33,541 nucleotides of DNA from Lophium mytilinum (GCA_010093605.1 MU004191.1:1-33541), one strand, 5' to 3'; shown: positions 571 through 28,625, counted from the stretch's first letter. The notes: generated by a model not told the origin, from the sequence alone. Program-made: numbers and translations.

Positions 571-693
571 TTCTTACTAGAAGGCTTTTTATAGAGATTC
601 TTTTAATTATAAATTTATATATCTTTTTTATATATATATATTATACTAATATTTTTTATAGGGCCTTTATAGAAAGCCTTTCTATAGTAACCC
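571..693. repeat. Dispersed palindrome copies 1-2
   Basis: 579-589 agaaggctttt (degenerate); 661-693 gggcctttatagaaag-c-ctttctatagtaaccc with a perfect 9-bp stem at 668-686. Confidence 0.75.
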
Positions 694-829
694 TTATATT
701 ACTATAGAAGTAATTATACTTTCTATTTACTATACTTCTAATATACTTCCCCTACTATAACCTAAATTAAGTAAGTATAAATAAGTTTCTATTATATATC
801 TCTCTATACTTCTAATAAGAATAATAGTT

Positions 830-3720
830 CTTATCCCCCTTTCTTATCTCTACCTCCCTCTTCCCCTTCTCTAATACCTTTTCTAACACCCCCTTTCTCC
901 TCTTTAATACTTCTTCTAACTCTATTACTATTAACTGCGCATACTTCTTTCTTACTACCTTCTTTCTAACTATATACCTTACTATTACTACTATTCTATT
1001 CTCCCCGCCTACTCTACTTTCTAGAAATAAACTACTTACTATAGATAGCCCCGGCGCTAGTATACTTAGCGCTGCCTACTAATACTCCGGCTATAGTAGC
1101 CCTAGCTTACTTACTAGTACTAGCACCTACGCTACTATACTACCTAGTAGCTATACTATAGCGTTCTTAGAACTCTCTACTATCTTCTACTACTTTTTTA
1201 TAGATGCAGGCTTATATATAGCGGGTAGCTATCTCTATATATAGCTAGAGTACCGCCTCTCTTACTATAGCTATATAAGCTACTTTCTTTAATAGGTAGA
1301 GTATAGCGCAGCCGCTAAAAAGGGCGTTCTCTAGATAGTATAAGGCTAGTAATAGCTTAGCAGATAAGTAGGTGCTAGTTTTAAACTTAGTAAAGGTTAG
1401 AACGGGGATTTTAGAGGCTTAATAGAATTCTATAAGAATACTAGTAAAGTTTTTCTAGGGTTCCTTAGAGGTAGTAGTAGTAGAAGTTAGAGTTAGAGTA
1501 TATTTTTTAGTTTTACTAGGGGTAGAGACTATACCTAAGGCTTTAAGAGAGAAGAGGAGAATAAGACTAAGAGTAGAGGCGGCTTCTTTAGCTTCTTTCT
1601 TAGAGGTAAAGGGGCTAGTAGTAGTAAGAAAGTAGAGAGAGCTAGCGGCGTAAAGGGTTAAAGTATAGTTCTAGAAGAGTAGAAAGGTATTACTATTAAA
1701 TAAAAAGATAGGTTAGAGGATAGTAAGAGCCTAGTAGCGCTAGATAAAAAGCTAGGTATTTACTAATAAGTATATAGAGATAGGGATAGATTAGAGAGTA
1801 GATTAGGCTTAGGCTTTAGCGGCGGTAACGGCGGCTTTATACTACTTCTTAAACTTATTAATACTAAGAAGGTTTTATAGTATACTTAGGGTACCTAAAA
1901 TAGAGCCTCTACGTATCTAATCTATTAATAGCGGGGTGGAGTTCTAACTACTAAGAGGAGCTATAACCTCTATCTTTCTTTTCTTCTTAAAGCTAGAAAG
2001 CAGTGTAGTAATTAAGCTTAGTATAAAGAAAGAATAAGAATAATTATTACTATTTATGCTAGTATATATATAAGGTTAAAGGCTAGCCTAAGAAGACTAA
2101 GGTAGGGTGCTAGTTTAATCTATATAAGCTAGAGTAGCTGCAGCTACTCTACTAGAAGTTATTCTTTAGCGCTTAGATAGAAGAAACTCTATATTTATGC
2201 GTAGCGGGCTAAGTTTATAAGAGGTAAAGTATATTACAGCTTATAGTTATATAATAGAGCTAGAGCCCGTTTTAATTTCTACCCCTTAGATAATCTGCTA
2301 AACTTTATACTCTTTACTATCTATTAGTAAATTTAAGCTAAAGTATAAAAGTCTTATTATAGTGTAATAACCTTTATATAAGAAGGCGGCGTATTAGATA
2401 ATTTCTAGTTAGCCTTTTAATAATTCGCATTGTAGTAGATAATACTGGCGTAGTAACTATACCTTAGAGTAGCTTCCTTTCTATAATATCCGCAATTTTA
2501 GGGCTTATAAGTTAGTAACGCAGTAGTAGTAGTAATAGAAGATAAATCTTCGGGTTTTACTATAGTAGTAAAGGGTAAACTAGTGCTATTACTAGGGGTT
2601 AGGTCTAGAGGCTCTACTATAGTAGAAGAAGATAAGACTAATAGTAGAAGAGTAGAGATAAAGCTATTAAAAAAGAAAATAAAAGTAAGGTAAAGTAAAA
2701 AAGTAAAGCCTATTAGATAATTTCCGCGTAGGCGGTATAGAGGGCTAGGGTGTAGTTCTAGAAGAGTAGAAACGCGTTACTATTAAAGGAGAAGATGGGT
2801 TAAAAGATAGTAAGGGCCTAGCAGCGCTAGATAAAGAGTTAAATGTTTACTAATAAGCGCGTAGAGATAGAAATAGGTTAAGACGCTGCTACTTCTATCT
2901 AAGGTTTAGATTTAGAAGTAGATTAGGCCCTACTACTTCTACTCCCTAGCTATAGCCTTAAACCTTATTTATATAGCTCTTACCTCCTTCTCTTCTATAT
3001 TAATCTATAAGCGTAAAAGCTTCTTATTTTTAAAATTATCCTTAAAAAACTTATAGTATCCGGGCTACTTATAAGGCTAGGCTTAATTTTAATACTAGGC
3101 TTAATCTTTATATTAACTTTATCGGCTAGTTTAGGCTTAATATTAATATTAGACTTAGAAGGTAGAGCACTGTCTCTAGAGGCTTAGAATAGGGGGTTAG
3201 CATAGTTATAGAGAGTTTAAGACTTAGTTATAGTAGGCTGCATATTAAGAGTAGTATTAGTAGGCGTGCCTAGGCTATTACTAAAGAGGGAACCTCTATT
3301 TTAATTCTAGATAGTTATAAAAAGTGCTTCTCTCTAGGTATAGATGCAGGTAGGGTTAGTAGTATTCTCTATAGTAAGCGGTTTAGTTATATAGGGTTAG
3401 TCTATATTAGCTAGCTTAAAAGTTATTTTAGAAATAAATAATAAAGACTCCTCTCTAGTATTTTATATAGCAAGATCCGCGGCATTACTAGGTATATTAG
3501 GGTTAAGAAGAGGGTTCTAAGTAATAGTACCTAAGCCTATTAGTGTGCCTATTATAGCGGTGCTATTCTTAGTATACTACTCTTCTAAGTTAGTTATATA
3601 AGTATTTCTATAGCCTACTAGCTTTAAAACTTTATATACTATTAAACTATCTCTCTAAAGTACTTTAAATGTAATTAAGAGTCTCTTCTATACTAGTTCT
3701 AGCTATTAGTTTACCTACAG
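830..3720 (-). pseudogene. RIP-degraded ORF relic(s) of unknown function
   Basis: Codon-like composition on the minus strand, with stops mostly TAA/TAG attributable to RIP and a Glu/Gly/Lys-rich tail near 830-960. No recognisable domain; number of genes and boundaries uncertain. Confidence 0.35.
1654..2883. repeat. ~140-bp direct repeat, two copies (1654-1795 and 2741-2883)
   Basis: Both copies read GTTCTAGAAGAGTAGAAA...TTACTATTAAA...GATAGTAAGRGCCTAGYAGCGCTAGATAAA...TTTACTAATAAG; mismatches are mostly transitions. Confidence 0.85.
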
Positions 3721-4444
3721 CTATAGTATAGAGAGGAATAAGCTAAAGAAGTAAGAAAAGAGAGGAAGAGTAAATTAGGCGGGCGCTAAAGCAACGCAGG
3801 GTATAGTTATATAAACTATATATTATAGGGACCTACTAGTTCCGCCTAAGATAAAATATATATATAGTATAGTAATAAAATAAAACTCTTAGAGCTGCTA
3901 TTTATATATAGTATATAGAGTTAACCTCTAAAGGTTAATTATAAGTATAGGTATAATATAAGAGGTTAGTATATAATATACTAAGATTAATAGAAACTAG
4001 CATATTAAACCTTTTTCTAACTATAATCTACCCCTTATAGTATAGTAGCAGCCTATATATAATACTATATATAAGTCTTAATTAGTATACTATATATATT
4101 CTTTCTAGAGTATTCTAGTAGATATTTATAAAATAAGAAGCGGCCCAACCTAATATAGAGACGGCTGCAACCCTAAACTAGGCTAAAGTATATAAAATAT
4201 AGCCCGGTATACTAAGGTTAACGCGCAGTAGTATAGCAACTCTAAACGCTAAGGATAATATTTAGCAGGGGTAGATATATCTACATCTACCTAATACGTA
4301 TATTTTAATAGAGCAGTTAGCTTCTTCTCTTACTACGCCTAATACTCTATTTAGGCGCGAGGTTATAAATACTACTCTAGATTTAGTTGTAAGGAGGAAG
4401 CTTATATAGCTAAAGCGCTTATTAAGATAGCTATAAGAATAGAA

Positions 4445-4635
4445 TATTAGGGCTTAAGGTTAGAACATTAGATTAAATAGTATTAATATTAATAAAAGAT
4501 AAATATAAGAGAGAAAGAGGTTTCTAGGACGGACGTTGTAATAACCTAAAGGGCGGAGTAATATTTACCTATTCTATAGAGCCTCTATTACGTAACCTCT
4601 AGTTACGTGTTATACGTAATTATATAGCTATAACA
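4445..4635 (-). repeat. 3' LTR of element 1
   Basis: TATTAGGG...CTATAACA (TG...CA ends, one RIP-altered); colinear with 12821-13011. Confidence 0.95.
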
Positions 4636-4650
4636 TGTCTCCCCCCTCTA
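4636..4650 (-). other. Polypurine tract of element 1
   Basis: Minus strand tagaggggggagaca immediately before the 3' LTR start TGTTA. Confidence 0.85.
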
Positions 4651-5169
4651 AAGAAGCCCCCTAATTAAAGCCTTTATAAGAGAGAGTTCTTTCTATACTA
4701 GAGTATCTGTAACCACTTAAATATCTATTAAATAAAGTGCCTAATTATGTTACAACTTAAGTAAATAATAGAAATAAATTAATTTTGTAGAGGATCGCTT
4801 ATCCTTCCTATTTTTCATGCAGCCTTCCGCAGCCTTACTATTTAGTATAGTGTCTAACTAACTTAAATAGTCTACTAGTGTTACTATATATAGTATTACT
4901 ATATATAGTACTATCTTATTATTTATTTAAACTAGGGCCGGCTATAATAGAGCTATAAGGAGCCGTATAGCCTTTATAGCTACTAGCCTACTACTAGGTA
5001 CTTATAATAATCTGCGCTATTATATTGCATTTAATTATTGCGCATATCTATAGTTAGGCCTCCTTAATAAATTAATTTAACCGCTAGTCTAGTAATTAAG
5101 TTATATAGCTTCTGCAGTATTAGTTATATAGAGGTCTATAGCGGTAAGAATAGTAGCTAAGGTTAGTTT

Positions 5170-8100
5170 CTAGTCTAATAGTGGTATAAATAATAGGTAA
5201 GGTTCTAGCTTCTTAGAGTAGTGGTAGTGGAAGTCTACTATAAGGTATAAATAACTATTAGTATAATTATAGTTATTCTATTAGGGTTTATTATCCTATC
5301 TAATAAACTTAATTTTATATTGCATTATACCCCTTTTACCTATAGTAGGGTTAAGTTATCTTCTATTAAGATAGTAGTTAATAACCTCTTTAGTATTACC
5401 TTTTTAATACATTAGTATTATCTATATAGGTAGAGGTTTAGGATTACGCTATCCTTTTATAGGGACTGCGTTAGCTAGATAGAGTAGCTAAGAATAGAAG
5501 ATAGGGTGCAGGTTTTCTATGCCCTTAGGTAGCTTAAGTTTATATGCGCTGCTGTTTTTATAGCTTTCTAGAACTTTAAAGGGGCCCAGCTTCTTAAAGT
5601 TAAGCTTTCTATTTAGGTAGTTTATTTTAATAAACCGTCTATTAAGTATAACTTAATTGCCTGGGTAATATATATATGCTAGTTATTATCCTGCGTTAGT
5701 ATACTTCTTTTACTTAGCTTAGGCCCATTTAATCTCTATGCAGAGAAATGCGCAAAGCTTATCTATTCTAGTAATAAATTTATCTGCAAGCTTTATAAGA
5801 CAGATTATTAGCGCGTTTACATTATCGGGTAGTTGTGCGGCTAGTGTGGTGCCTACGCTAGAAATATAGCCCTTAGTAGCTATAAATAGCGCTACTTCTA
5901 TAGAGGCGTTCTTTAATAAGTTGGCCTTAAATTTAGTAATAGTAAGGAAGTTATACTAGTTATCTTGCTAGTAGTTAATATATGCCCTAAGGTATTACTT
6001 TAAGCCTATATTAGCGACTTCTATTTATCTATCTATCTTAGAATAGAAAGCTATAGAAAGCTTTAGTTTTATTCTAATGCATTTATATAGGTGGAACTAG
6101 AAAGTTAATATAAATTATAATCCGCAATTAGATATAATAGACTCTAGGTATCCTTTAGTGCGCTAGACCCATTCTAGAAAGGCTTATGCTACTTCTTTAG
6201 CCTCCGTTATTACTATTAGAATAAACTTACGCATCTTAGAAAGTCTATTAACTACTACTATAACGTATTAGTAGTCTCGTCCGGCTTATATATATTTAGG
6301 TAGTAGGCTAATAAAGTTAACTATAAGGTTAGTCTAATATTATTTAGAAATTAGTAGTAGTTTAAGAAAACCTTACTTTACCTCTTATGCATGCTTAATG
6401 TAATTACATAGTTAGCAGGCCTTAATATATTAGTTAACGTTAGAGGTTATTTATAGCTAGAAATAGTATATTAAGACACGGTTATAAGTAGACGTAGTTC
6501 CACCGTAACCAACTAGCGGAGGCTTGTGTAGGCTTTTAATAATAGCTAATTAGAGTTTCTCTTTTATAGGAATATATAAGCGGTCCTTTTAAATAAAAAT
6601 AAGGCTGTTATAGATTGTGCAATTATAGAGTTTAAGCTTAACGCCATAATTTTTAACTATATTAGTAGGCAGGCGGCGTAGCTTAGCTCTAATAGCGTCT
6701 TTAATAGCGTTAGTAATAGTATTATTAGTAAGGGCCTCTTATATATAATCTATAATATCTTACTCTACGGCACTATTAGTAGAGTTATTCTATAACTCCC
6801 CCTGCCTACCTAGTAGCTTCTATAGTTTATTATTAAGGTTACTCTAAGACTCCCCTTAATTAAGTTCTACTTTACTAAGGTTATATATTATTGCTGCAAG
6901 GGAGACTATATTATAAGTTATACTGTTAGTTATAATATAAGCTAATTTAATAGCGTAACGCATTTCTAGTTTAAGATTATAGTTCTTTAAGATAGTTTAT
7001 TACTAAATCTTATAGCGCTTATTGTTTTTATCTAGTATATTACCTAGGCGCCTAGTTAGTAGATTAGCTTTACTATTATCCTTGCCTGGCCTATATATAA
7101 TCCGGAAGTTAAACTTAGAGAGGAATTTAGCCTATCTAGCCTATTATTAGTTAAGCTGCTTTATCTCTATAAAGTATTATAGGGTCCGGTAGTCTAAAAG
7201 GACTTTAATAGAATTACTATACCTATAGCTAGTAAGTTCTATGCACTATTCTTTAAAGGCGTAGATAATTGCTAGGAGTTCTTTATTATAGATTTAATAA
7301 TTAAGTTAGGCTGCGCTTATTTAGTAAGATATAAATGTAATAGGGCGGAGGACTCTATTAGCTTATATTTAAGATAGTATAGCGGCCGTAACGGTATTAG
7401 ATGCATTGCATTCTACCTACGTCTCTAGGTCTAGATTAAAATAAGCTATCTAAGGAGTATTAATAAACGCTTATTTTATTTATTTAAATAAAAAGTCTTT
7501 AGAGCTACCCTTCTACTATAGAAAGGTAAACTACTTATAGACCTTAGCCCTAGTAAGTCTTATAAGGGGTCCTGTAATGTTAGAATAGGTAATAATAAAT
7601 CGCCGGTAGAAATTATAGAAGCCTAGAAAAGCTTATATATTATAGAGGTTCTATAGTTATAGCTAGTTAACTACTATTTTAACTTTAGCTAGATCTATTT
7701 TAAGGCCGTTAACGCTAATAATAACGCCTAGATATTTAACTTCCTATTTATAGAATTTACACTTAGTAATATTAAGGAAGAGGCCGGCCTTGCAGAGTTA
7801 CTAGAGAATCTTCTTAATGTGGCCTATATGTTCCTCCAACGTCTTACTAAAAATAAGAATATTATTAAGATAGGCCGTGCAGAAGTTATTAAGGTATTTA
7901 AGTAGAACATTATTAATAAAGGCCTAGAAGGTCGCCGGAGCGTTATATAGGCTAAAAGGTAAGATAGTAAATTTAAATAGGCTATATCTTATAAGAAAAG
8001 CCGTGTATTTCTTATCTTCTTCTCGCATTCTAATAGCGTTGAAAGCGGCTATAACGTTGAACTTTATATAATACCTAGCGTATTTTAATAGTATAAGTGT

Positions 8101-12715: not shown

Positions 12716-12809
12716 TGGGTATAAGTATACTACAGCTTATTATAAAAGCGCACTCTATCACGGAAAATTTTCTAGGGGTTGCTTCTATCGCTTCTAGAAG
12801 CTAGGAGGG

Positions 12810-13011: not shown

Positions 13012-13902
13012 TAAAAGTAAAGAAAAATACTAGAATAAAAGAGTAGTTCTATTTATAATATAGAGACTATTTATAACTATAAGAAGAAGGAAAGTTATAT
13101 TAAAAGTAATAAATAGTAAGACTATAACCCCTTAAGAATTACTATTCTTACTAATAATAAGCAGGTCTAAATATATTACTAATAAACTAGAAAGTATAAC
13201 TATAATACCTAAATTACCTTCCGCCGCCTAGTATATAGAAGACTTAATAATAATATATATAAATAACCCTCCTTCTAGTTAGTTTAGGTATTATATAATA
13301 ATATACGCTTTAGAGAACTATAGATAGAATAAAGTTGCATATAGTATATTAATAGATAGGGTCTATAGAGAGGACTTAGCCTAGCTATATAACTAATATT
13401 AGTAAAGAAAGTTAAATTATAGGGTATATAATAGTAGATTCTTTACTATAAAAAAGATAGAGAGTATATACTAATAGTATAGATATAATAGAGCGGCATT
13501 AGAATATAATTACCCTCCCTAACTATATAAACTACGGTGGATAAGACCGCCCTCTATAATATAGATAAATAAAATAAATATTATATTACGCATAAGATAC
13601 GTAAGGCATAGTTATAGTAGTAAATATTACGCTATATTCTATAGTTAAGTAAGCCGCTATCTAGAGGCTAAATATAAACTAGAAGATTTTAAGGGTATAA
13701 AGTATACTACTACTATAGAGTAGTGCTAACTATTAGAGGGTAGGGAATAGAATATAAGTAAGAAATTAGAATAGTAAAAAGTTAGTAGTACTAAGTAAGT
13801 AGGTGCAAACTAATAGTAAGAAAAGTAGTCCTAATTAGAACCGTTAGAAAGAAAAAGAAAAAGATATTAAGAGATACTAAACTAAATCTAAAAAGTAGAG
13901 TA

Positions 13903-13937
13903 AGGGCCTCTATAAAAAGCCTTTCTATAAAGACTCT
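13903..13937. repeat. Dispersed palindrome copy 3
   Basis: agggcctctataaaaag-c-ctttctataaagactct. Confidence 0.75.
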
Positions 13938-14810
13938 ACTAGTTATACCTTACTATTAGACTTCTCTAGCGCTATACTAGTTCCCTTTAATTTACTACTA
14001 TCTTCTTTACTATTAGGGTTAGTATCTGCACCTAATACCGCGGGCGGTTAGCTAATATTAGGATTATTCTTCCGCCTGCGTAGGTTTATTTTTAGTCTAG
14101 TAGAGTTTATAGACTTCTACGCGGCAGCTTTCTTCTTAGTAGCCTTTCTTTTGCGCTAAAAGTACTACTTAGTAATCTCTTTCTCTATTATATACTTATA
14201 TAGATAATATATAAGAAATTTAGATATAGGATCTTTCTTAGCTACTTTATTCTTCTTTATAGTAGGCTTTTTTTTTGCGCCTTAGCGCTTCTAACTCTTA
14301 TTAGTATTACTAGAGGATATAGTCTTTAAGGTTAGCTGCAAGGCCCCTTCTATAAATTCTAGCGGGTTGTCTAAGTTACTACTATAGTTGCTGTTACGCT
14401 TAAAGGCAACTTTAGATAGCGTAGTATTAAAATCCGGGTAATTATTAAGATACCTTTTATTTTACTTATTAGTCTTAGACGGAACGTTCTCTATATTAAT
14501 GTTAGGGGTTTTAATATTCTTTTTATTCTACTTATTACTCTTAGTCTAGTTATTATCTATATTAATATTAGCTTTTAGTAGTAAATAAAAAACTAGATTA
14601 TTTATAGAATTCTATAAGAAGATAGTAGATATTCTACGCTACCTCTTCTTCTATATATTAGATAACAGGATAGAGTCTATAGAAGGGGTTCTAATAAGGC
14701 GTCTATTAAAAGTACTAAGAGGGCTAGAAGGTAGAGTTAAAGTGGGTTAACGGGTAGAAGTAGAAGCTACTATAATAGTTAGCACTTAAGTAATATAATA
14801 GGCGATGCTA

Positions 14811-15297
14811 AAGGGCCCTAGTAGGAAGGCTTTCTAAAAAGGCCCTAGGATAAATTCTTATCTATATACTTTATAAGGAATAAAGTATTATTTTTATACT
14901 CTTTACCTTTAGAGTTATTACTATTTAGCCTACTAAAAGAATTATTGCCGTCTATATTACTAAAAATAGCGGGTACTTAATATAAAGAGTTACGCTCTAG
15001 CCTATATTAATAGATAAAAGGGGTATAAGCCTTTCTAGTAGCGCTCTTTATAGGGGTAGGTATATTAGATTTAGTAGAATTTAAGTCTTTAACTGTAATA
15101 GTAGACTTAGGGTTAGGCTTACGCTTTTTAATAGTAGCTGCTAGTATAGTACTAGCTTTACGCTTCTACTTTAAAGCTTTACTATTTTATTACTCTAGCA
15201 TCTTTAGCTTTAGCTTTAGGGTAGCTTTTACTATAAAATACAGATTAGTAAAGTATAAAGAGGCAAGTAGAGCCCTAGTAGAAAGCCTTTCCGCTAG
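14811..15297. repeat. Dispersed palindrome copies 4-6
   Basis: 14811-14846 aagggccctagtaggaag-g-ctttctaaaaaggccct; half copy ~15027-15048 aagcctttctagtagcgctctt; 15270-15297 gagccctagtagaaag-c-ctttccgctag. Confidence 0.8.
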
Positions 15298-16613
15298 AAT
15301 CTATAAGGGTAAACTTACTGCTTGCAGGATAATACTTAAGCCTTAAATCTAGCTTATTAATACGCAGTTTCTTAGGCGCTCTACTTACACCCTTCTTCTA
15401 CTCTTCTTCTAATTCTAATTTAGTAAATTTATATACTTGTTCTTCTTAAAACTTATTACTAAATCTACTAGACTAAAAAGTTATATTACCTTATATAAGG
15501 GTTATTAGAAATATAAGAATATTTTATAGAGAGTTAAAGCGCTTAATATATAATTCTACTAGTATATTTAAAATATCTATTTCGCCTGTAATAAGGCGGG
15601 GTGCAATACTCTTATTATTATAGGTTACCTACGCATACTAGCTATCTAGGGTTAGCTTTTCCTTAGAGGTCCCCTCTACCTTAATCTAGTTAGTATTTAA
15701 CGCAGTAGCAAGACCGGGAAGCGCTATCTGCACCTGGCGCAAGAGAGTAAAGGCATTAAATATATTCTAGATAAAGAACGCGGTTACTATAATAGTAAAC
15801 TTCTAGCTAATCCTATATAAACGCGCTATCGCCTGCTTCTTAATCTAAATAGAGCCTGCAGGGTTAAAAAGATATATATTATAATAAGTAGACTATAGAT
15901 TAAGCTTAGCTTTATTAGCCTAGTAACTAGTAATAAGGATCTTTACTTTAGAGTTGGGGTTGTTAAATAATAAGATAAGGTTATTCTAGTTAGTAGTAGA
16001 GAGATTAGAGGCTAGTATATAAGCATTTATTTTATAATAGTTAATAATCTTAGCAAGAATTATTTACTTATCTAGGTAGTTAGTCTAGATAATAACCTTC
16101 TCTATACGCTTAATAACGTTATTAGCTAAATAGTATAGTAGTGCAGCTACTTTAGGGGCATTATAGATAAAAAGGGCAATAATATAATAAAAGGGTGCGG
16201 ACTTTACTTTAAAGTCTTTCTAATTAGAGTTAGTTTAGACATTCTTATTCCGGGTAATTTGCTTTATTATGCCTTATAAAATATCTATTTCCTTTAACTA
16301 GTAACCGCTATTATTCTTAAGAGGGATAATTTTCGGGCCGTTTTTAATCTTATTACCCTCTAAATCTAAAACCTTCTCTTATAGATATGCTATTATAGCG
16401 CGCTTAAAGTAGACTAAAAATAGCATAGTACTTATAAGGTTAAGAGCACGTATAGAGCATGCGTTAAATATATAGGTGCGCTAGCCTATATAGTTCTTAG
16501 TAAAAACTATTAATAACTTAAGGTAGCTTAGTAATTTATTAGTATAGATAATATAGCCTAGTTTTATAGGCTATAGCTTAATTACTTGCGTAACTAACCG
16601 CGGAAGTAATCCT

Positions 16614-16686
16614 CTAATTTAGGTGGCAGGATTAGTAGAATTATTTAGGCATGTAGAAGGGTATAAGTAAGTAATTATATACTTAC
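16614..16686 (-). other. Spliceosomal intron (73 nt) in the SNF2 relic
   Basis: GTAAGT donor at 16686, CTAAT branch-like site, TAG acceptor at 16614. Removing it joins the frame of motifs I/II to that of motif VI and yields GLLPRLVTQVI, resembling the SNF2 LPP linker. Confidence 0.75.
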
Positions 16687-16763
16687 TAAAAATTAAGCGT
16701 AAATAAAGCCCCTATATAATTCTAGAGAAATATTAGAAAATTAAAGTAAATAAGAGGAGAGAT

Positions 16764-16800
16764 AAGGGCTCTAGCTGGAAGCCTTTCTGCTAGGGCCCTT
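16764..16800. repeat. Dispersed palindrome copy 7 (inside helicase exon)
   Basis: aagggctctagctggaag-c-ctttctgctagggccctt. Confidence 0.85.
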
Positions 16801-17580
16801 TATATAATAACTTACGGGTTAAATAAAGGCAGAATAAAATTTTTAAAAGCCTTGCGTGTATACTAGAAAATTATACCTAAATAGTTATTAGAAAGCTTAA
16901 ATAGATTATTAGTACCCGGAATAAACTTAGCTTTACCGGGTTTTAAGCGGTACATGCAGAATTATAGATACTTATCTCTTAGTTCTATAAAAGATATATA
17001 AGTAGGTATATTAGTAATACCTATATATAGCGGGGTTCTACTATAGAGTATAGTAAAGTCTAAGTAAAGCTATAATATAGTTAGGTAGAGATTTACTTAG
17101 TTACTTTTAATAAGCTAGCACTTATCTATAAATTAGACGTTAAAATAGCTACTTAAGAGACCGGGCTAGGTAGAGCTTAGGTAATATTTAACTTAGTTCT
17201 TTAGCTTAGTAAGATTATTATTGCTATACTACTTTAATGCGGGCTAGAAACCGTGCTAACCGGCTATTACCTAATAGCTAGCAATTATAATACTCTTAGT
17301 ATTTGCCTTATTTTTAGTATTAAATAAGAGATAGTCCCTAGTTAAGGTATTATATAGAAACGTAGCACTATAGAAAGTAACTTAGCCCTTTAATAAATAG
17401 ATATAGAGCTTAAGTTTAGAACTAAACTTTATAAGTTTATTTGCTATTTAGTATACTAAAATAGAAGGTATAAGAAAAAGAAAGGGCTTTACCGGCCTAG
17501 GGTCTTTCTTATCCGCAACTTTACGCTAGCGCTTAGTAATAAGCTATAATTAAATTAGTAGATACTAAGAGAAACTATTA

Positions 17581-18412
17581 GAGGGGTAGTAGAAAGGCTT
17601 CCTATTAATACTCTTTAAAGAGAAATTACTTATATATCTAATAAGGGTAGCCATTAAAAATATCTTTCTAATGCTAACCTTATCTATAATTAAAGCCCTA
17701 CTAAGAAAGCCTTTCTATATAATATAGTATATATAGTAAGCCCCGGTAATCTACTACTACCTTAAGTAAATATTGCTATTTATTATAATAAGGCGAGGTT
17801 TCTAATAGTTATAAATGCGTAGGGCCTTTATTACTTCTTTAAGGTTATCTAGCTAATAGGCTTTATTAGTTATTAGAAGGCGGAGTATACTCTACGTTGT
17901 AAGATCTACCGCAGTTAGTATAGTAAAGGGGATAATATTCTTTATATTAATAGCGGTAGCCCTTATATTAGCCTCTATATCTTAGGTATATTTAATACTA
18001 TCTAGATTAGCATACTTATTCTTATTTAGATCTATAGCGCGCATGTTTAGGTGCTATTTAATGGTATATATAAAATCTTCTACTATCTATCTAATTACCC
18101 AATATATATTATATTAAAACTTTAATAAGTTCTAGTTAATTATTACTCTAGTGCGCTTAGTATGCGTAATTACTAACTTAAGCTTCTATTTTATAGTGCC
18201 GGTAATATACTTAGCGCTAGTAATATTAATATTACCTTTCTTCTTATTAACTAGGTTTATAGTAATTTCCTCTTTAAATAACTCCTAGATAGAGTTATCT
18301 ACGTTAACCTCTATATTAATGGCCGTAAGTTCCTCCTTAGTAAAATAAGAGGGCGACTACTAATAGAGAGGCCTAGAAGGGCCTTAACGGGAAGGCTTTC
18401 TATTAATATTCT
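17581..18412. repeat. Dispersed palindrome copies 8-10 (within helicase gene)
   Basis: 17581-17614 ...tagtagaaag-g-cttcctatta...; 17693-17720 with core agaaag-c-ctttct (17704-17716) directly upstream of Walker A codons; 18377-18412 aagggccttaacgggaag-g-ctttctattaatattctt. Confidence 0.75.
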
Positions 18413-19387
18413 TACTGCTATAAGTAATAGTTTTAGCCGGGGTCTTAGGTGCCGGTGCTAGACTAAGCTTTATTTTTTAAAGAATATTCTATATCTTAAT
18501 TTAGTTCTTAGTATAGGTAGTTCTACTAGCTTAAGACGGGCCACTCTTAAATTCTATATTTTTCTTTAATTTAAAGAAGATTCTAAGCGCTTTATTATTA
18601 GTAATATTAGCGCGGTTATATAAAAACCTACTAAACCGCTTCTAGTAGTAATTAAAGTATTAACTAATAAATTAAGCTACCTAATCTATAGGTTTATAGT
18701 TATCTATCTTAAGCTAAGGAGTAGTATATTACTATAGATTATGCAACTTACTAGTCTTAAAAGTATTTAGAATAGTAGTAAAACTAGCCCCTTAATTCTA
18801 ACTATATATAGCGCGCTTTAGGTCTAAATACCTATTCTTATACTTATTCTAAATTACTTAGAAATTAGGCTTAGCTAGAATTGCTTTAAGTTCTGCTTTT
18901 ATTTAACTATAAAGCTTAGCTAACTTTATTCTACTAGTATATAGCGTGTTTACTAAGGCCTATAACTTTTCTAACTCTTTATCTTTTCTACTACTAGTAA
19001 CTAGCGCTTAAAGCTTTTCTTACTCTTTATTAGAGTTCTTAGGGATATTAAAGTTATTACTATAGTTATTACTATCTAAATAAACTACTTTACTATTTAC
19101 TAATGTAAGCATCTCTAGATCTATTATAGTAGCTAGCTAATTACGCTTTAAATTAATATAGGCATTAACCCTTAATTTAGTAACTAGTAGAGAGGTAGAA
19201 TTTAGATCTTCTAGCACTTTAGAAGAAGTGGATTATTTCTTATAGCTATCTACTAGGTTAGTTGCAGGTAATATGTGTAGGGATGCAACCTTTACTGCTG
19301 CTTTACTAGGGTCCCTATTACTTAAGATATTTATAGCTAGCCTATTAATATATTAGCTTATCTTAAATAATAGAAGAAAGGAGGCAG

Positions 19388-19560
19388 GTAAAGGGCTCTA
19401 GTAGAAAGGCTTTCTACTAAAACCCTTTACACTATGCTTAGTATTTTTAGTATTATTATTTTCTTAATATTTTCTACCGCCGCATCTTTAAAATTAAGGT
19501 AGACTAATCTATTAAGACTAGTAAAGGGCCCTAGCAGGAAGCCTTTCTATAATAATTCTT
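19388..19560. repeat. Dispersed palindrome copies 11-12
   Basis: 19388-19430 gtaaagggctctagtagaaag-g-ctttctactaaaaccctttac (43 bp, near perfect); 19521-19560 gtaaagggccctagcaggaag-c-ctttctataat. Confidence 0.85.
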
Positions 19561-20010
19561 ATAATACGCTTATTTTACTCTACTCTTAGAGAAATTACAA
19601 TAGAATAAACCTATTAGTAGAATTAGCTATAATATAACTTAATTTTACCTACTAGATAGTAAACTTACTAAAAGGCTTAACTGCTAGCTAAAAAGACGCC
19701 TAAAATAAGCTAATTGCGGCTCTAATATAGCTAGAAAGCTGCTAACTATTATCTAGTAAGTAAGAAACTAGCGCGTAACTATTCTACAGGTAGCTAGATA
19801 AGTAGAAGTAATAGGGGTGCAGTAGTATAGAAGGAGAGGTTAGTATAAAAGTAAAGAAGTTAAAGCTACTAGGCGGTAGATAAGTTTATAGGCGGCCGGG
19901 CTAATAGCCGCCGGCCGCTAAGACGCTAAGCCTTTAATAGTAAACTGCTTAAGTTAACTCTTAAGATTAATATAATAGCTATATATTATATAAGGTTAAA
20001 ATATTATAGG

Positions 20011-20230: not shown

Positions 20231-20244
20231 CTACCCCCCCTCTA
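20231..20244 (-). other. Polypurine tract of element 2
   Basis: Minus strand tagagggggggtag immediately before the 3' LTR. Confidence 0.85.
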
Positions 20245-20639: not shown

Positions 20640-23600
20640 ATATAATTGTAGCTAGCAGGGGTTTCTAGTGCTTAGGTTTCTTAAAAGACTTATAAGGTCT
20701 AGTAGCGTTAGAGTATTAATAATAGTAGTCCATTATAACGTTACGGTAATTAAACGTGCTTTTGTATAATTTCCACTTAGGTTTAGCGTTCTAGTTAGGG
20801 TAACTAGTGTAGTAGATCTTATACTGTAAAAGGCCTTTAGTGCCTATAGTAGAATTAACTATTACTTTATTAATGCGGGAGTTAATAATATTATCTATAT
20901 CCTATTATTTAAAGCCTTCCTAATTAACTTTAATAGGGCCGGGTTTATTATACGTTTATTCTTTAAGTGGCTCGTAAGTAATTCTATGCAGTAGCTAGGG
21001 ATAGAAGATATTAAATAGTTCTTTTAAGGTTTAGGGCAGAGCGAGTTTATATATAGAGTTATTAATAACGCGTGTAATCTTATATAGCCCTAGTTACTTA
21101 TAGTCTAAAGACTTATTTAGGCGTTAAGTCTTAATATTACGCGCGTTAAGTATAACTTTATCCCCTACTTTAAGCTCTAGTGCTAGTTTGCGTTTTAAAT
21201 TTATATAGTAAGCTTAACGTGCTTATACCTAGATAAGCTTATCTTATAAGAATAGTTATAGCTTATTAATGCGTTTAGCTAGGGCGTTAGCTTTCTTACG
21301 GAGTAATTTCTAAGGGCCTTTAGGCTTAATACTATTATTAGCGGGTTCTAGTCCTAAGTATAGGTTGTAGCCTTTAGTTGCAATAAAAGGTAAGATACTA
21401 GTTATAGTTTTATTGCAGTTAGCTTTAAACTTAGCTATAGGTAGAAGGTCTACCTAATTATTCTATTTATAATTAATATAGGCTTACAGGTATTATTTTA
21501 AAGCTATGTTTACAATTTTAGTTTAGCCGTCCGTTTCTAGGTAAAATAATAATAAGAGCTTTAGCGACGTGCTAATACGGGCGTAGAGGCGTTTCTAGAA
21601 GTATAATATAAACTATGCTTTTTAATTAGATACTATAGTATATAGATAGCCTTCCTTACGCTAGACCTATTTAATAAATGCTTAGATAACTAGCTTAACT
21701 TCTATAGAATTAAGCGGGATAAACTTTCTCTTCTTTAATAGTTAATTAACTATAACTATAATATACTTATATTGCCGGCCCCACCGTTTATAGATAGGTA
21801 GCGGTCCGATAAAATTAACTAAGATATTATGCCAGTAGTAATGTAGAATTAGCAGTAGGTAAAGAAGGCCTTATTTACCTTCTCTAGAGTACTTTAAGCG
21901 GCGATAGATTATGCAAGCGCCTATATACTAATTAACATTAGAGGTTATAAGAGGCTAGTAGTAGTAGTTACTAAGCCTAGCATATATAGAAGTTATTCTA
22001 GCGTAACTAGCTAGTTTAGGTTCGTGCATAGATTAGATAATTATAGTGCGTAGTTTTAGCACTACTAGTATATAGAGCTTCTTCTAAATATAGAGAAAAT
22101 TATTAATTATATTATAATTACTAAGCTTAATTTATAAATAGTAGTCGCGGTAGAATTAAGCTAGTAGTTACTATTTATTACGTTATTTAGCGTACTTAAC
22201 TACTTATATAATAGAATTAGCTTAAGAGGCTTTCTTTACTTATTAGAGGATTTAATTACTAGTTAGAACTAGCTTTAATACGTTATATGGCTCGGTATTA
22301 GAAGCTAGTCTGTTATTAGTATAAGAATTCTTTATCTTATCTCTTACTATAGAGGTAGTCCTAGAATCCTTTATCTTATCTAGGGGCTCTAGTTATAATC
22401 GCGTTTATCTAGTGCGCGTAACTGCAAGTTAAAGTTTATTAGTGTAATTAGGTTAATTAAATTTACTAAAGTTATAAAGTATAGAGGCTAGGTTTATTAC
22501 TATATATTCTAGGGCGTTCTTAGTAAGTATATAGGCTAGGTTAATAGCGTAGTATATATTAGGTTTATAGTTTATAGGTTTAAGCATAACTTATTCTTAA
22601 TACTTATAATAAGCGTTACCTTTAGAGGGCTTATTACTAGGTTATCTAGTAAGAAGATCTAGCTTATTATTAAGCTTTCCCAGCTTATATATAATTTTAA
22701 AGTTAAATTCTACTAAGAACTTAGCCTATCGGGCTTAATAATAGTTAAGTTATTTAGTTGTTATAAACATCTAAAGATTCTTATAATTAGAGATAACGTT
22801 AATAGGGCTGCTGCATTCCTGGCCTTAGCCGGTAAGCTCTAGGCGCTAGTCTTTAAATACTAGAATAATAGCAAGTAGTTCTTTATTATAGATAGCGTAA
22901 TTAATCTACTATAGTATTATTTATTGTAATATAAAGGTAATAGGGCGTAGAGTGCTATCTAGTTAGACTTATAATAATACTGCGGCTATTATATAATCTA
23001 AGGAATTACACTTAATCTATATTTTATAGTTTGGATTCTATAAGGCTAGCTAAGGGGCGTTTTAGAAGTATTTCTTAATCCGGGTAAATGCTTATGCCTT
23101 GTCTCTGTTATCTTTCTAAGGGAATTTAAATAACTTCTTAGCAGAGGACGTAAGTATAGAGAGAGGTGCGGCGAACTTAGAATATCTAGTAATAAAGTAA
23201 TAGTAGAAGTTATAGAAGCCTAGAAAGGCTTAAACATCTTTAAGGTTTCTAGGTATAGGCTAATTAAGTACTATTTAAACCTTATAGGGGTCTATGCAAA
23301 CACTATTAATACCTATAATAATACTAAGATACTTAACTTCCTAGACTGTAAATTCGGACTTGTAAATATTAAGAAAGAGACTAGCGTCTTTAAGTCTTAT
23401 AACTATAGAGATAACATATTTCTTATAATCTTCTAGGTTATTACTAAAGATAAGCACGTTGTCTATATAGGCTGTATAGTACTAGTTAAGATCTTTATAT
23501 AGTATATTATTAATATACGCTTAAAATAAGCTAGGTGTATTATATAAGCTAAATAGTAGAACTATAAACTTAAATAGACCCCATCTTATTAAGAACGCTA

Positions 23601-25044
23601 TTTTATGTTTATTACCTTCTTTAATGCGTAGAGCGTTAAAGGCGCTAATAATATCTAGCTTAGTGTAGTATCTAGCTTTAGCGAGTAAGGCTAATGTATT
23701 CTTAACTAAGAGCGGCATGTTACAGCTCTTAATTATAATATTATTTAGTCCTCTATAGTCTATATAGATATGTAGGCCTCTACTAGGTTTCTTAATAATA
23801 AGAGTTAGGGCGGTAAAGAATAATAAGCTTAGCCAAATAAAGCCTTTAGATTGCATTTTATTAATAAATACTTTAACTACGGCGGCTTAATCTTATAAAA
23901 GACTGTAGACCTTTTATACTAGTAGTTTACTATTAGGCTTAATATTAATTGCGTGGTCTATTTTGCGGTAAGGGGGCAGTATATTTACTGCTTGTGGGTT
24001 CTATGCATTATAGAGGTAGTGGAGCTAATCTAGTAGTAGCTATTTAATCTTATTATTAGTAATAGGTGGTCTATTTATTTTATTAAAGAATTTCCTGTAG
24101 TTAGCGGGGTTAATTATAAAGATATTAGATATAAATGCAGCTTATTTCTAAGCTAGGGAGTTATTTAGCTTATTAAGTCTATAGAGAGCTAGATTATTAG
24201 CTATAGTATAAGTATCTTTATCCTCTTAAGTATTAAGGTAGTAAAGCTTATTAAAGTCTTTATTTTATAGTTAGATAATAGCGTCTTCCTTACCTTTACA
24301 GGTAAGCTTATAATATTTAGCAAGGAAGTTATTAGCTTTAGCTAGGTTAAGGCTAAGCTTGCGGTAATAGTTAATAATTTCGTGTAGGGCACTATTATAT
24401 AGCTTCTTTTCTTTATAGGTAATATATTAGTTACGGCTATTACTCTAAATATATTAACAGCCGTCTATATATAGATAGTGGCTAGCGTAGTAGTTAGAGT
24501 TAAAATCTAGTGCGTGCTCTTTCTATATAGGACTAGGCTTATAGTATTTAAACTAGGGTATACTAAGAATAATATTATAGCTCTAAAGGTTAGTAACGTA
24601 GCACTATAGGTATTTAATATAGGCTCTAAGTAATAGCGTAATTTAAGCCTTATGCGTAACTATAAGCATTAACTAGCTATTAGTAAGGCGTAGTAGTATT
24701 AGCTTTATAATGGGGACTATTATAAGCTTATAGGCTTTTATAAATATTTATAATATAAAAGCTAGATATAAGCAGCCTATATCTATTAAGTACCTACTAT
24801 TAATAATACCGGAGGTAATAGTATAAATTCTGCATTTAAAATTAAGCTATTTTTCTTATGTAACTTTCTTAGAGGAATTAACAGCGCAGGTAGAGAGCTA
24901 GAGTTTATCTAGCTTAGGGGGTGGTTGCTTTAGTTTGCAAATGTAGGCAACTAATGCACTTAGATAAATACCTGCTAGACTCTAACCGTAACTATAGTTA
25001 GAGCCTAGGGAAAATCTATACTATTTAAGTCTAAAGAGTTTCCC
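20640..25044 (-). pseudogene. pol: pol relic of element 2 (protease, RT, RNase H, integrase, chromodomain)
   Basis: Protease LID[T]GC (~24772-24790). RT fragment = supplied ORF 23521-23856 (YIDYRGLN, KLDIISAFNALRI); YIDN<YVDD at 23458-23469. RNase H KCNSLDY<ECDSSDY (~22993-23014). Integrase HEPKLA[G][H] (~22005-22027), ETDG[Q]T (~21520-21537), LG[P]Y (~21082-21094). Chromodomain ~20700-20910 (SRI...GLLQYKI..T[G]YPN[W]NAKPKW). Confidence 0.94.
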
Positions 25045-27300
25045 TATGCGGCGTTATTATTACTACTATTATTATTAACAGCGGCTAGCGCGTTACTAAG
25101 CTTAATATTAGATGCGAAATTATCTATATAGTAAACTATAGAGAGCTTTAAATTAAGCTCTTTCTAGAAGCGGGCAAGGCGTTATTAGACTATCTCTTTA
25201 GAGGGAGGGGCGTTCTTTATATAGGGATAGTTGCGGTCTAATACGCGGTGTCCTATCTTAAGGTAGTTATAGTAGATATCTTTATCTTATTTATTAAGCA
25301 CTTTAGTTACTACAGGAGGGAGATAAATGCGGCGGGTATTACTATTATAGTCTTAGCAGCGTAAGCTATTATCTATAATAGGGCGTAATAAATACGCTTT
25401 AGGGTTACGGTTAAAGTTCTAGAAGCTATAATTAGACTTCTTACTAAATAGCTTATTAGTATATGCGGATCCATTACTATTATTTTAGAATAGGCTGTTA
25501 GTGCGTTATTATTTACGGGCGCGCTTATGTTTACTGGTAAGAAAGAACACTATACAGTTAACGGCGGTAACTAGTTCTATCTAGAATATATAGTTGTTAG
25601 CAGCGCTAAAAACCTAACTTTTAAGTTTAGGGGTAATAAGGCGCTTAAGCTATCCTTTCTAATTAATAAAGTCCATTTCCTTATCGGAGTCTATTAATAT
25701 TATTTCCTGGAACCGGAGGAGGAAGATAGGCCATTTCTTGTTATATTTTATAAATGCCTATTAGCTGTAAAGCTTATTATTTATAGCTATAGCTTTGTCC
25801 TTAATTATAAAATAGGGGTTTATTATTTTAAATATTTTTTTAATTATTTTAAAGTTGTTACTTATAGGGCGGTCCTATTAAGTACGGTTGCATATAACGC
25901 TTTTAGCGAATCTAATATAGTAGGATTTAATGTATTTAAGCTTAGCTTACTTATTATAGAAATCTTAAGGTTTATTCTAGAAGATAGTATAGGCGTGCAC
26001 TTTCTATAATTTATATTTAGATTAGTTATCTTATTCTTTAAACTTCTATAGGTCGCGGAACTTAGTATATAGCTAGTGTAGGCTAGCTATAAGTTAGGCG
26101 TTTAGATTGTATAAAAAGTTAGGCTAGGTAAAATAATTGCAATTAGGAGGATTATTGCTGTTGCCTTTATTAGATAGGTAGCTATAGTTACCGCGCTTAG
26201 CTGCGTTATCTTATTAAGAGCGCGCTTAGGGTTATTACTATATAGCTTATTAGTACTTCTTTTTATACTCTATACCCTAAGCGCGAAAGGTGTCGCGCTG
26301 CTATTAGTATTAGTCGCGGTAAAAAGTAACTTTAGCTACTTTAGTAGTAAGGCCTTTAACCTTAATATAGAGTTTAGCGTTAAAGATAGTCTAAGTGTTA
26401 GTTTTCTTGCGCTTATCTTCTAGCTACTTAGTAAGACTGTCGCGTTTATTAGCAAAGTTCTTAGCGTTAGTATGCATCTTAGCTACTTAATAATAGAGCT
26501 TAGCGGCTTAGTTTTTAAGGTTAGTAATTATAGTACTATTTTATGCGCCTTATTATTCTTAAAGTTATGTAATTTTATTATCTTTCTATTAAATAGCTAC
26601 TACTATATTCCTAACATCTTTATGCAACTTACTAAGTTCTCGGCGGCAGTTAAGTAGTGCGGCGTAAATACTAATATATTTATCTTAAGCTATATCGCAA
26701 AGCTCTTCTATATTATTAATAGTAATATTAATAGATTACCTATTACAGGCTTAGTTAATAATAAAGACTATGCCGTTATCTTTATTATCTATAAGGAGGG
26801 ACTATCAACGGTTAGGTAGTTAGCCGCTAGTTCTAGCGGAACTAGCGCCTGCGTTACTAGCGCCTGCGTTAGCTATATTAGGCTGTTCTTAGGTAGGGTA
26901 GATATTTAGAATTGCAATAGTATTAGTAGTAGAGATAATAACCTAGTCCTCTATAGTAATTAGAATTTAGAAGAAGAATAGAGTAGTTAGGTTAACTAGG
27001 GGTTTAGTAAATTAGACGGCATAAGGTATAGATATTTTAGCGAATAACTTAAAGTCTTCTTTATCTTTACCTTTACCTTTACCTTCTTATGCATAGGCGT
27101 TATTATTAGTATCCTACTTAGTAGAGTTAGTAAGGTTGTACTAGACTTAGCTCCGTGGTAGATTAGTACTAAATTAATTTAGTAGAAGGTAAATATCTAG
27201 TCCTAGATTACTAAATTTCTTAGTACGTGCAGCGAGAGCTTCCGGGGTTACAGTTAGTTAGTGTTGTAATACTCCTCCGCCGCCTATCTTATAGGCAGCT
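25020..27300 (-). pseudogene. gag: gag relic of element 2 (5' end approximate)
   Basis: RIPped zinc knuckle [C]YN[C]LKIGH......[C]P at ~25224-25275; GGGAAAC slippery site at 25038-25044 in the same frame. Confidence 0.7.
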
Positions 27301-27696
27301 TCCTTTTCTTAGTAATTAAGCTTATATACTTTCTAAGAGTTAAATGTAAGAGTAGATTAAGTAGCTTATAAGCTAGAAGGGAGAGTAGAAGTAGTAATAA
27401 CTAGACGCTTATTAGCTTTACCGCCGGGAGGTAAACCTATAAGCTGCGCGCTAGGTATAGCTATACTATATAGAGTTAGAGCTTTTCTACTATAGCTTAG
27501 TATAGCTAGTCTTAGGGGTATTATTTATATCTTTACTAGTAAGTATTAGTAGACTATAGAAGGAAAGGTTAGTATAAGGTAGAGGGTATAGGTTCTCTAT
27601 AAAAGCTTAGAAGTAGGCGTGCTTTCTAGAGTAGCTAGTACTATTCTTAGCGGCTGCCTTTAATTAGTAAATAAAAATAGGATAACTACGCATAGA

Positions 27697-27892
27697 CTAG
27701 TTAGTTGCGCGTAATAGTAGTAAGTAGGTATATAGGGCCTGCGCGCTAGCCTATTACTAATAGGGTATATATAGTTCTTACTCTATTATTAGAAAGTAAC
27801 TGCGCTTATATTAGTTAGTTACGCGTAATAGTAAGCAGGTTTATAGGGCCTGCGCGCTAACTATAGTAGGCGGGGTATATAGAGTCCTTACT
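27697..27892. repeat. Two ~85-bp direct repeats in the 5' leader of element 2
   Basis: TTAGTTRCGCGTAATAGTA...TATAGGGCCTGCGCGCTA...GGGTATATA at ~27697-27782 and ~27812-27892. Confidence 0.8.
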
Positions 27893-28034
27893 ATAAGATT
27901 ATAGAACCTTCTTTTAAGTCTCCCTATATTAATATAGAGGTTGTTAGGTTTATATATTAAAATTAGGCCTATTAAAATAGCTATTTAGTTAATTATAGGG
28001 TTGCTAATATAGATAGATAGATAAAAAGAGGGTA

Positions 28035-28054
28035 CTTCTAGAAACTTCTAGAAG
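28035..28054. promoter_or_regulatory. Heat-shock-element-like array (4 alternating pentamers) in the leader of element 2
   Basis: cTTCt aGAAa cTTCt aGAAg matches alternating nTTCn/nGAAn; function not demonstrated. Confidence 0.4.
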
Positions 28055-28063
28055 CTAGAAGGG

Positions 28064-28074
28064 TAGTTACTTTA
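28064..28074 (-). other. Self-priming primer-binding site of element 2
   Basis: + strand tagttacttta (28064-28074) is the exact 11-nt reverse complement of taaagtaacta inside the LTR (28129-28139) and directly abuts the LTR. Confidence 0.82.
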
Positions 28075-28294
28075 TATTATAGTGTAATAGCGGATTATAA
28101 GAGAAGACCTAATATTAGTATATATAGATAAAGTAACTATAAGAGAGAGAGAAGGGCGCGGAGCGCCGGCTAAAAGGTAGGCGAGGCTGGCGCTAAGACT
28201 AGTTATGTAACGGTAATTACGTGCTAGAGAGCACGTAACGCCGTTATATATATTAGGAACGTATTGTAATAGGGGTTACATTACAGCTATAATA
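28075..28294 (-). repeat. 5' LTR of element 2
   Basis: 220 bp; differs from 20011-20230 by transitions plus one transversion seen (aagcct/aagact), no indels. Confidence 0.95.
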
Positions 28295-28461
28295 ACGGGT
28301 ATAAATATATTAGTATTTTACTTAATTTTGCTAATATATAAATATTTATAGTTAATCTATAATACTATACTATATATTACCTAGTTCTAGTAATATAGTA
28401 CTACACTAAGATAGGTTAATAGAATATCGCGCGTTATTATATAACTATTTACCTATAGTAT

Positions 28462-28625
28462 AAGAGTCTTGCTAGAAAGCCTTTCTACTAGGGCCCTTTA
28501 CTACTTATATTAAGTACGCCTATTATTACCTCTCTTCTTATATATATTACTACTATATATCTACTAGATAAGTATTTACGTACTATATAAGAGCCTAGCT
28601 AGAAGCCTTTCTACTAACGCTCTTT
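28462..28625. repeat. Dispersed palindrome copies 13-14
   Basis: 28462-28501 aagagtcttgctagaaag-c-ctttctactagggccctttac; 28589-28625 aagagcctagctagaag-c-ctttctactaacgctcttt. Confidence 0.8.

Follow-up and report, generated by a model that had tools for sequence, protein, structure and literature searches.

A recurrent palindrome in a decayed subtelomeric SNF2 gene unit of Lophium mytilinum, the possible core of an introner-like intron family

The sister introns of the Hypoxylaceae are canonical U2-type introns of about 93 nt, each an imperfect inverted repeat centred on a palindrome, and are described as integrated without target duplications, and it was proposed that hairpin or double-stranded intron RNA aids their copying at DNA breaks (Fekete et al. 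2021, PMC8469720). The introner-like elements (ILEs) of Dothideomycetes are described as repeated spliceosomal introns that have a stable structure, are longer than ordinary fungal introns and degenerate over time, and the same paper also mentions single genes that contain a few duplicated, nearly identical introns (Collemare et al. 2013, PMC3609843). Here we describe a palindrome that recurs in a stretch of 33,541 nt from Lophium mytilinum (GCA_010093605.1 MU004191.1:1-33541; this whole stretch is called the window and positions are counted from its first letter), inside and around the relic of an SNF2-family helicase gene wrecked by repeat-induced point mutation (RIP). The best-supported reading is that of look-alike palindrome-cored introns of a known general sort, with a sequence and a build that differ from those of the Hypoxylaceae introns.

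The Hypoxylaceae sister introns are closer still to the family of the window than the ILEs. As they are described (PMC8469720), they are also mutually similar introns of about 90 nt (93 nt there, 88–94 nt here) with a predicted hairpin, their intron signals are on the coding strand only, flanking duplications are not seen and the symmetry decays in older copies; the pairs of palindromes found about 100 nt apart in their stwintrons have a counterpart in two pairs that are 127–133 nt apart here. The differences from that account are also clear (PMC8469720). There is no sequence likeness (the centre is TTTCTAGAAA there and GAAAG-S-CTTTC with GGGCCC blocks here), the symmetry extends over the entire intron there whereas a 43-nt dyad fills only the 5' half here, and many unrelated genes with splicing demonstrated by reverse transcription PCR stand against one repeated dead unit read from sequence alone, to which all the palindromes belong, some of them located outside any recognisable gene. 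With the ILEs, the window shares look-alike spliceosomal introns, a length above that of ordinary fungal introns, a predicted stable structure and decay, as far as the description goes (PMC3609843). The family of the window is set apart by its sequence, by a dyad located in the 5' half, by its confinement, as far as seen, to one SNF2 unit and by copies in apparently non-genic flanks.

Two other kinds of system come near. Miniature inverted-repeat transposable elements (MITEs) and transposon-derived introners are short non-coding inverted-repeat units that can become introns; unlike them, no target-site duplication, partner transposase or dispersed copies were found here. The telomere-linked helicase families of fungi (RecQ-type TLH, yeast Y') also have a gene of the helicase superfamily within a repeated, telomere-adjacent unit, but the gene of the window is of SNF2 and not of RecQ type, and we know of no palindrome-bearing introns in those families. 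The initial annotation of the window knew of no described element with this signature, a statement that is not borne out, repeated and internally symmetrical introns being in print (PMC3609843, PMC8469720). Among the papers listed by a main-text literature search for the 12-mers of the motif none was fungal or relevant, and a search on SNF2, subtelomeric, RIP and helicase gave none describing this unit, as judged from the listing.

A palindrome outside the LTR elements

The consensus dyad is about 43 bp long, GTAAAGGGCCCTAGYRGAAAG-S-CTTTCYRCTAGGGCCCTTTAC, with the GAAAG-S-CTTTC centre plus GGGCCC blocks. We searched the window for the half-site GGGCCCTAGYRGAAAG with up to 3 mismatches and found 13 matches, while 100 dinucleotide-preserving shuffles gave a mean of 0.92 and a maximum of 4, and none of them reached 13. 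A search for the core RRAARNYTTYY with palindromic flanks led to 13 places (core starts at 579, 672, 13915, 14824, 15281, 16777, 17592, 17705, 18390, 19404, 19537, 28475 and 28601). Together with a degenerate copy near 15040 they make up all 14 places listed in the initial annotation, so that the recurrence described there is confirmed and the motif is real and non-random. Eleven copies are fairly complete (centres 677, 13920, 14829, 15286, 16782, 17597, 18395, 19409, 19542, 28480 and 28606), two are half or degenerate (15040 and 17710) and one is doubtful (584).

Two long terminal repeat (LTR) elements interrupt the window (Table 1), and what remains after subtracting them (1-4443, 13013-20010 and 28295-33541) is called here the backbone. 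None of the half-site, core and matrix searches found a copy in the 16.9 kb of the two LTR elements, and no copies were present in 700-4443 or in 28700-33541 either. The LTR DNA is equally mutated, and therefore this comparison with unrelated RIP-mutated DNA and the excess over the shuffles bear out two further claims of the initial annotation, that the palindrome is restricted to the non-LTR backbone and that it is not an artefact of RIP or of composition. A symmetrised weight matrix gave nothing further above 8 bits, in a scan that is circular, as these copies had themselves served to build the matrix. When the three backbone pieces were compared by self-BLAST, which is unbiased in this respect, palindromes of 24–60 nt were nearly the sole common sequence, and a MAFFT alignment of 240-nt stretches revealed no common flanks beyond about 45 nt.

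Introns and exons of the SNF2 relic

The central copies are located within or close to a gene relic on the minus strand. The minus-strand translation of 16801-17798, with stops read as X, was compared by phmmer to a database of 1.84 billion representatives and retrieved 22 proteins at E<=1e-3 (best 3.1e-22). Ten of these hits were scanned with Pfam; nine contained SNF2-rel_dom, three of them together with Helicase_C, and P0014 matches solved SNF2/Rad54-like and Rad5 chains. By tblastn and two profiles made from the phmmer hits, the SNF2 N-domain is found at 18002-16816 in one frame and the Helicase_C part at 16721-15647 in another. A profile of six full-length homologues gave independent E-values of 6.8e-22 (18002-16965) and 1.3e-29 (16717-15647), in agreement with the SNF2 gene that had been recognised at the outset. 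The profile and tblastn alignments contain the SNF2 motifs I, Ia, II and III, followed by IV–VI of Helicase_C, in order, and by eye the minus strand reads IIDKVSIRK, KPFLFLIP, FIDKC*LIKS, SRTPLY, ILITSY*ANKAKLNL and QAIARLYRIS. Motif II (17123-17112) is DKC* within FIDKC*, against DECQ in the three closest hits (P0001–P0003) and DExH in the usual form; the DECQ box marks a distinct subfamily, the database members of which are all short fragments. The N-terminal part of the homologues, some 370 profile positions, was not placeable upstream of 18002. Pfam searched in six frames with X at stops found no family in 13000-20010 or in 28295-33541, and RVT_1 plus four more in the LTR control. Since Pfam missed a relic that phmmer and the profiles found, negative Pfam scans of RIP-mutated DNA are unreliable.

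The homologues cover 2.36 kb, in which the relic has exactly two long insertions, each with a full palindrome. At the downstream one, intron A, residues 179-188 of P0008 span 16830-16711 with a change of frame from -3 to -1, and the profile alignment breaks alike between positions 706 and 756. Conceptual removal of 16815-16722 leaves FILPLFNPII*GLYLRLIF, with 8 residues between the conserved blocks as in P0008. The minus strand here is cccGTAAGT-tattatat-(dyad)-...ttCTAATatttctcTAG. Intron B is in frame and appears as an insertion of 30 residues relative to P0014 between motifs I and Ia, seen also in the profile alignment; when it is removed 28 residues remain between GKT and PFLFLIP, for which the homologues have 26–41. 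Its sequence is ATAAGT-aatttctct-(dyad)-...taCTAATttaattaTAG and, as the first A is preceded by a T, the simplest reading is that this donor was a GTAAGT before a RIP-type change of TpG to TpA. Insertions of 94 and 90 nt relative to the homologues that coincide with splice signals (the donor of B being probably RIP-altered) and, in one case, with a change of frame indicate that the copies at 16782 and 17597 are within introns, and 16722..16815 and 17544..17633 are accordingly annotated here as putative introns.

The initial annotation had placed full copies inside the helicase exons without breakage of the frame, which does not hold for these two. In particular the peptide KGP[W]QKGFQLEP at 16764-16800, taken for exon, is a read-through of intron A, across which the frame changes. 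It was right about KGFL at 17704-17716, which overlies the codons just before motif I (Walker A). This half-copy (centre 17710) is collinear with the homologues and nothing is inserted, the distance from WQ to GLGKT being 28 residues here, in P0014 and in P0022, and 27 in P0021; it has the exact 12-mer GAAAGGCTTTCT in common with full copies. The alternative posed there between palindromes as inserted codons and palindromes overlaid on conserved ones has then a mixed answer from the alignment of homologues, with insertion at 16782 and 17597 and overlay at 17710.

A third unit, C, was recognised from its splice signals only; it is located some 200 nt beyond the point where the homology to the gene stops, and no homologue covers it. 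Units A, B and C, of 88–94 nt, have in common the 43-nt dyad, a CT-rich run and the constant distance of the donor, with weak likeness outside the dyad. More generally, a GTAAG[TG] begins 31–33 nt before the centre of the dyad on the minus strand of three of the 13 copies (13920, 15286 and 16782) and on the plus strand of none, over a background of 1.3% per 17-nt window, and a fourth copy (17597) has ATAAGT at the donor position, again on the minus strand. Downstream on this strand, at 15–50 nt, CTAAY followed by YAG was found in 6/13 copies. The repeated unit is therefore polar and gene-oriented despite its palindromic core.

Evidence of a similar arrangement was found in relatives. P0001, the closest homologue, comes from a different record (jgi, a contig of 1318 nt) and resembles the relic in its DECQ box. 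Its alignment covers 17435-16749 in a single frame, and past the exon end the protein continues as ..SPYVIQHSSIKGGLQEAFLQPPLV.., a read-through that includes the peptide KGGLQEAFLQPPL (aligned to 16791-16749). This peptide is antisense-symmetric, i.e., six mirrored pairs of residues around a centre codon can be encoded by reverse-complementary codons. It is the only one with at least 5 mirrored pairs among the 22 hits (9496 residues), and in a shuffled protein set 0.08 peptides reach 6 pairs. The codons of P0001 after ..SP begin G-TAY-GT, a donor, and P0002 ends in ..STPDP exactly at the exon end of intron A, where GTAAGT would give an in-frame TAA. The read-through of one and the stop of the other suggest an intron at the same place in relatives, at least one of which would carry, judging from the protein, a dyad of at least 39 nt. 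The arms deduced for P0001 are GGN-CTG / CAG-NCC, against CCC-TAG / CTA-GGG in the window, and differ at mirrored positions. The only near homologues of P0001 were P0001 itself and P0003, both from jgi (contigs of 1318 and 1175 nt); there were no longer ones, and the C-terminal 43 residues of P0001 match P0001 only. In metagenomes the un-mutated palindrome pattern gave 0 stretches, and among metagenome contigs 392 pattern matches were obtained for loci related to the three closest proteins, of which 0 were confirmed.

Origin of the palindromic units

The sequencing runs that contain the stretch were two DNA runs of one sample, with no RNA run listed among them. Contigs of these two runs were aligned to 19330-19620 at 80% likeness, to which a possible RNA run contributed no piece. 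This stretch was covered by 71 and 62 contig pieces and all the listed differences were transitions, indicating that the backbone is a multi-copy repeat diversified by RIP and that, as initially proposed, the palindromes belong to a repeated backbone unit, the stretch being multi-copy as a whole. The dyads were not visibly more abundant than their flanks in these contigs. The loose ends of the pieces match the flanks of the copies at 28480 and 15286 and hence point to paralogues of the same SNF2 unit. Rfam gave no match at gathering level in the whole window, and in 13800-19700 a single chance-level match (E 0.93) to a Bacillus small RNA.

On balance we favour, with some reserve, an introner-like reading in which the palindrome forms the structured centre of a family of introns, within a subtelomeric SNF2 unit that is repeated and was inactivated by RIP. 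The insertion units, about 90 nt long and similar to one another, would make up a small family and, inside the SNF2 gene, would be its spliceosomal introns. In the direction of the gene strand a unit would run from GTAAGT through a spacer of 8–10 nt and the 43-nt dyad to a CT-rich stretch that contains the CTAAY branch site, and would end in YAG. These units would have multiplied within one gene unit, in the way of the introner-like elements and internally symmetrical sister introns of other ascomycetes, presumably spreading by copying, whether by re-insertion mediated by RNA or by a DNA step; a hairpin, of the intron RNA or of the DNA, may have made copying or splicing work, and the flank copies may have arisen by the same process as the intronic ones. 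The SNF2 gene unit would then have become multi-copy in the genome and been inactivated by C>T and G>A mutation of RIP type. In the window, close to the telomere, two gypsy LTR elements would have inserted into it and broken it up, and the copies seen today would be decaying relics.

Several observations weigh against this. The intron status is backed by homology for two copies and by signals only for a third; the locus is a dead copy with introns known just from its sequence, and the palindrome of P0001 is deduced from protein alone. The exonic half-copy at 17710 is not explained by an intron model. At least five copies (584, 677, 28480, 28606 and 13920), perhaps more, are located where no gene has been shown, so that the family is not purely intronic, and the central base is found in either orientation relative to the gene strand. 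ILEs, as described, are present in hundreds of copies across unrelated genes (PMC3609843), unlike what is seen here, one repeat unit as far as the data go; no unrelated context for the dyad was seen in the contigs on 19330-19620, in an assay that is insensitive to 43-nt matches. Compensatory change between the arms, which the initial annotation had suggested looking for, was not found among the 13 copies of the window (70.0% of positions paired, 68.8% when shuffled, with 137 of 500 shuffles as high). Finally, only 3 of 11 copies still fold, as DNA hairpins, better than their shuffles; the best kept reach -12.3 kcal/mol (z -4.8, the copy at 19388..19430) and -11.6 kcal/mol (z -3.1).

Chance, or a by-product of RIP or low complexity, could be thought of in DNA of about 30% G+C that is rich in TA-rich inverted repeats (121 inverted pairs were listed in the window). 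It has a negligible probability and is excluded by the excess over the shuffles, by the lack of copies in equally mutated LTR elements and by the G+C-rich GGGCCC blocks, the opposite of a RIP product. A more serious rival, though an unlikely one, is a DNA transposon of the miniature foldback or MITE-like kind, consisting entirely of an inverted repeat of about 45 bp, that made many insertions into the unit and survived where harmless, i.e., in pre-existing introns and flanks. The sequence common to the copies is indeed short and its flanks are mostly unalignable, terminal inverted repeats are present (the unit is one inverted repeat), copies are found within the gene as well as outside it, their centre base occurs in both orientations, and 94 minus 45 nt would still be a viable fungal intron, taking the minimal size from general knowledge. 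Random insertion, however, is hardly expected to leave a 5' splice site at a constant distance and on no strand but that of the gene (3–4 of 13 copies against 0 of 13), or to occupy 2/2 old introns. Besides, no target-site duplication was apparent by eye at 19409, 28480, 16782 and 19542, where RIP could hide one of 2–3 nt, and no copies outside the SNF2 repeat unit were seen in the source contigs, by the insensitive assay mentioned above. The absence of copies from 16.9 kb of LTR DNA is of less consequence for a transposon, as the LTR elements were inserted later and only date its activity as older.

We consider it quite unlikely that the dyads are cis-acting sites of the SNF2 unit placed in its non-coding parts, introns included, whether bound by a dimeric protein or forming cruciforms or hairpins that signal recombination, replication or silencing. 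Such sites would fit the clusters on both sides of the gene (four copies at 13.9–15.3 kb and four at 19.4–19.6 plus 28.4–28.6 kb) in addition to those inside, the dyad kept in a relative with mirrored arm changes, a paralogous module adjoining the telomere-adjacent repeats and the amplification of the stretch as a whole and not of the dyads alone. They do not predict the fixed splice-site context, and nothing here identifies a binding protein or a mobile-element enzyme. To our knowledge SNF2 ATPases are not site-specific dyad binders. The lack of pairing constraint among the present copies also speaks against sites, although dead copies would be expected to show it under any model. An extension of the intron reading, which we regard as doubtful, is that the dyad is a functional element, kept palindromic by the mirrored, compensatory change between diverged relatives at one intron site, as the active part of palindrome-driven intron making, in a family that may have been born from an exon of the helicase itself. 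The half-copy at 17710 encodes conserved residues and has a 12-mer in common with intronic copies, as if an exon segment had seeded the first intron; an inverted duplication of that segment would have produced the first hairpin intron.

Chromosome-end setting and meaning of the family

The features are collected in Table 1. The window starts at a chromosome end, with (CCCTAA)n to about base 100 followed by some seven copies of a 60-bp tandem repeat (101-506) that itself holds inverted repeats, the whole chromosome-end region being 1-553. Both gypsy elements are full-length and heavily mutated, with LTR pairs 93% and 88% alike over the stretches compared. In the second, reading stops as X, Pfam detects RVT_1 (2e-13), RNase H, an integrase zinc domain and SH3_Tf2-1; this element separates the palindromes at 19542 and 28480.

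Table 1. Coordinates of the palindromes, the SNF2 relic and the LTR elements in the window.
Feature	Position	Strand	Remarks
RIP-wrecked SNF2-family helicase relic, homology-supported part	15647..18002	minus	phmmer, tblastn, profiles
Putative intron A, 94 nt	16722..16815	minus	GTAAGT, 8-nt spacer, palindrome (centre 16782), CTAAT, TCTCTAG
Putative intron B, 90 nt	17544..17633	minus	ATAAGT, 9-nt spacer, palindrome (centre 17597), CTAAT, TTATAG
Candidate unit C, 88 nt	15231..15318	minus	GTAAGT, 9-nt spacer, palindrome (centre 15286), TACTAAT, TTTTATAG; splice signals only
Coding half-copy	17693..17720	minus	KGFLSRAL, followed at once by motif I (IIDKVSIRK, aligned with GDSVGLGKT in P0014)
Best-preserved palindrome	19388..19430		39/43 to consensus; all 4 differences C>T or G>A
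Palindrome, left arm intact, right arm decayed	19521..19563		comparison with consensus
Palindrome upstream of aligned SNF2 part	18374..18416		minus strand: starts GTAAGA; then CT-rich run, TACTAAG
Palindrome	14808..14850		minus strand: GTGCTAACTATTATAG after it
Palindrome	13899..13941		minus strand: GTAAGG 8 nt upstream (G at 13953)
Degenerate copy	15024..15052		one arm and centre; other arm shortened
Two palindromes, centres 28480 and 28606	28435..28662		within tandem duplication of a segment of about 127 nt
Telomere-proximal pair	563..698		doubtful copy (centre 584) and good copy (centre 677)
Ty3/gypsy element 1	4444-13012	minus	LTR pair 4444-4636/12820-13012
Ty3/gypsy element 2	20011-28294	minus	LTR pair 20011-20230/28075-28294

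Among the copies outside the homology-supported gene, those at 18395, 19409 and 19542 are located where the unalignable N-terminal part of the gene should be and the density of stops is lowest in the gene frame, and on both sides of the 18374..18416 copy it is the same minus frame that has the fewest stops, both being weak evidence. Those at 13920, 14829 and 15040 are beyond the gene end. The stop-codon density per frame gave too little separation of exon and non-coding DNA to class the flank copies. Other genomic copies in the source-sample contigs differ from the window, most of them with a G at 19421 where the window has an A, and some with C, G and C at 19546, 19549 and 19550, which brings the right arm of that palindrome nearer to the consensus. 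The tandem duplication that contains the 28480 and 28606 copies has units at 28435-28540 and 28562-28662 that are 75% alike by self-BLAST. The telomere-side pair was considered as the mark of a second, inverted copy of the gene, an idea that was dropped with no SNF2 signal in 700-4443 by tblastn or profile.

The telomere-adjacent repeats at 474-589, which flank the telomere-side pair, match 28361-28484, the DNA beside the 28480 palindrome, in inverted orientation (72–77% over 52–105 nt), which looks like part of a common subtelomeric module. There is besides a direct repeat of 149 nt, 80% alike, at 1645-1793 and 2732-2880 in the otherwise uncharacterised 700-4443 region, and close to the right end of the window a tandem repeat of about 84 bp is present in at least 3 copies (33149-33461).

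For annotation, what appeared as a Pfam-empty subtelomeric backbone turns out to be an SNF2 gene unit, repeated and inactivated by RIP. The origin and spread of new spliceosomal introns is an open question, and in the few fungal cases the introns are structured and self-similar by a mechanism that is not known. This locus adds a case in which the structured part would be an almost perfect 43-nt palindrome, present in every recognisable intron of one gene, with a palindrome that a relative appears to have at the corresponding site, its arms changed in mirrored fashion, and a half-copy in the neighbouring exon. If intact copies exist here or in related genomes, they would provide a compact system in which to study the role of the hairpin in splicing, in copying or in both.

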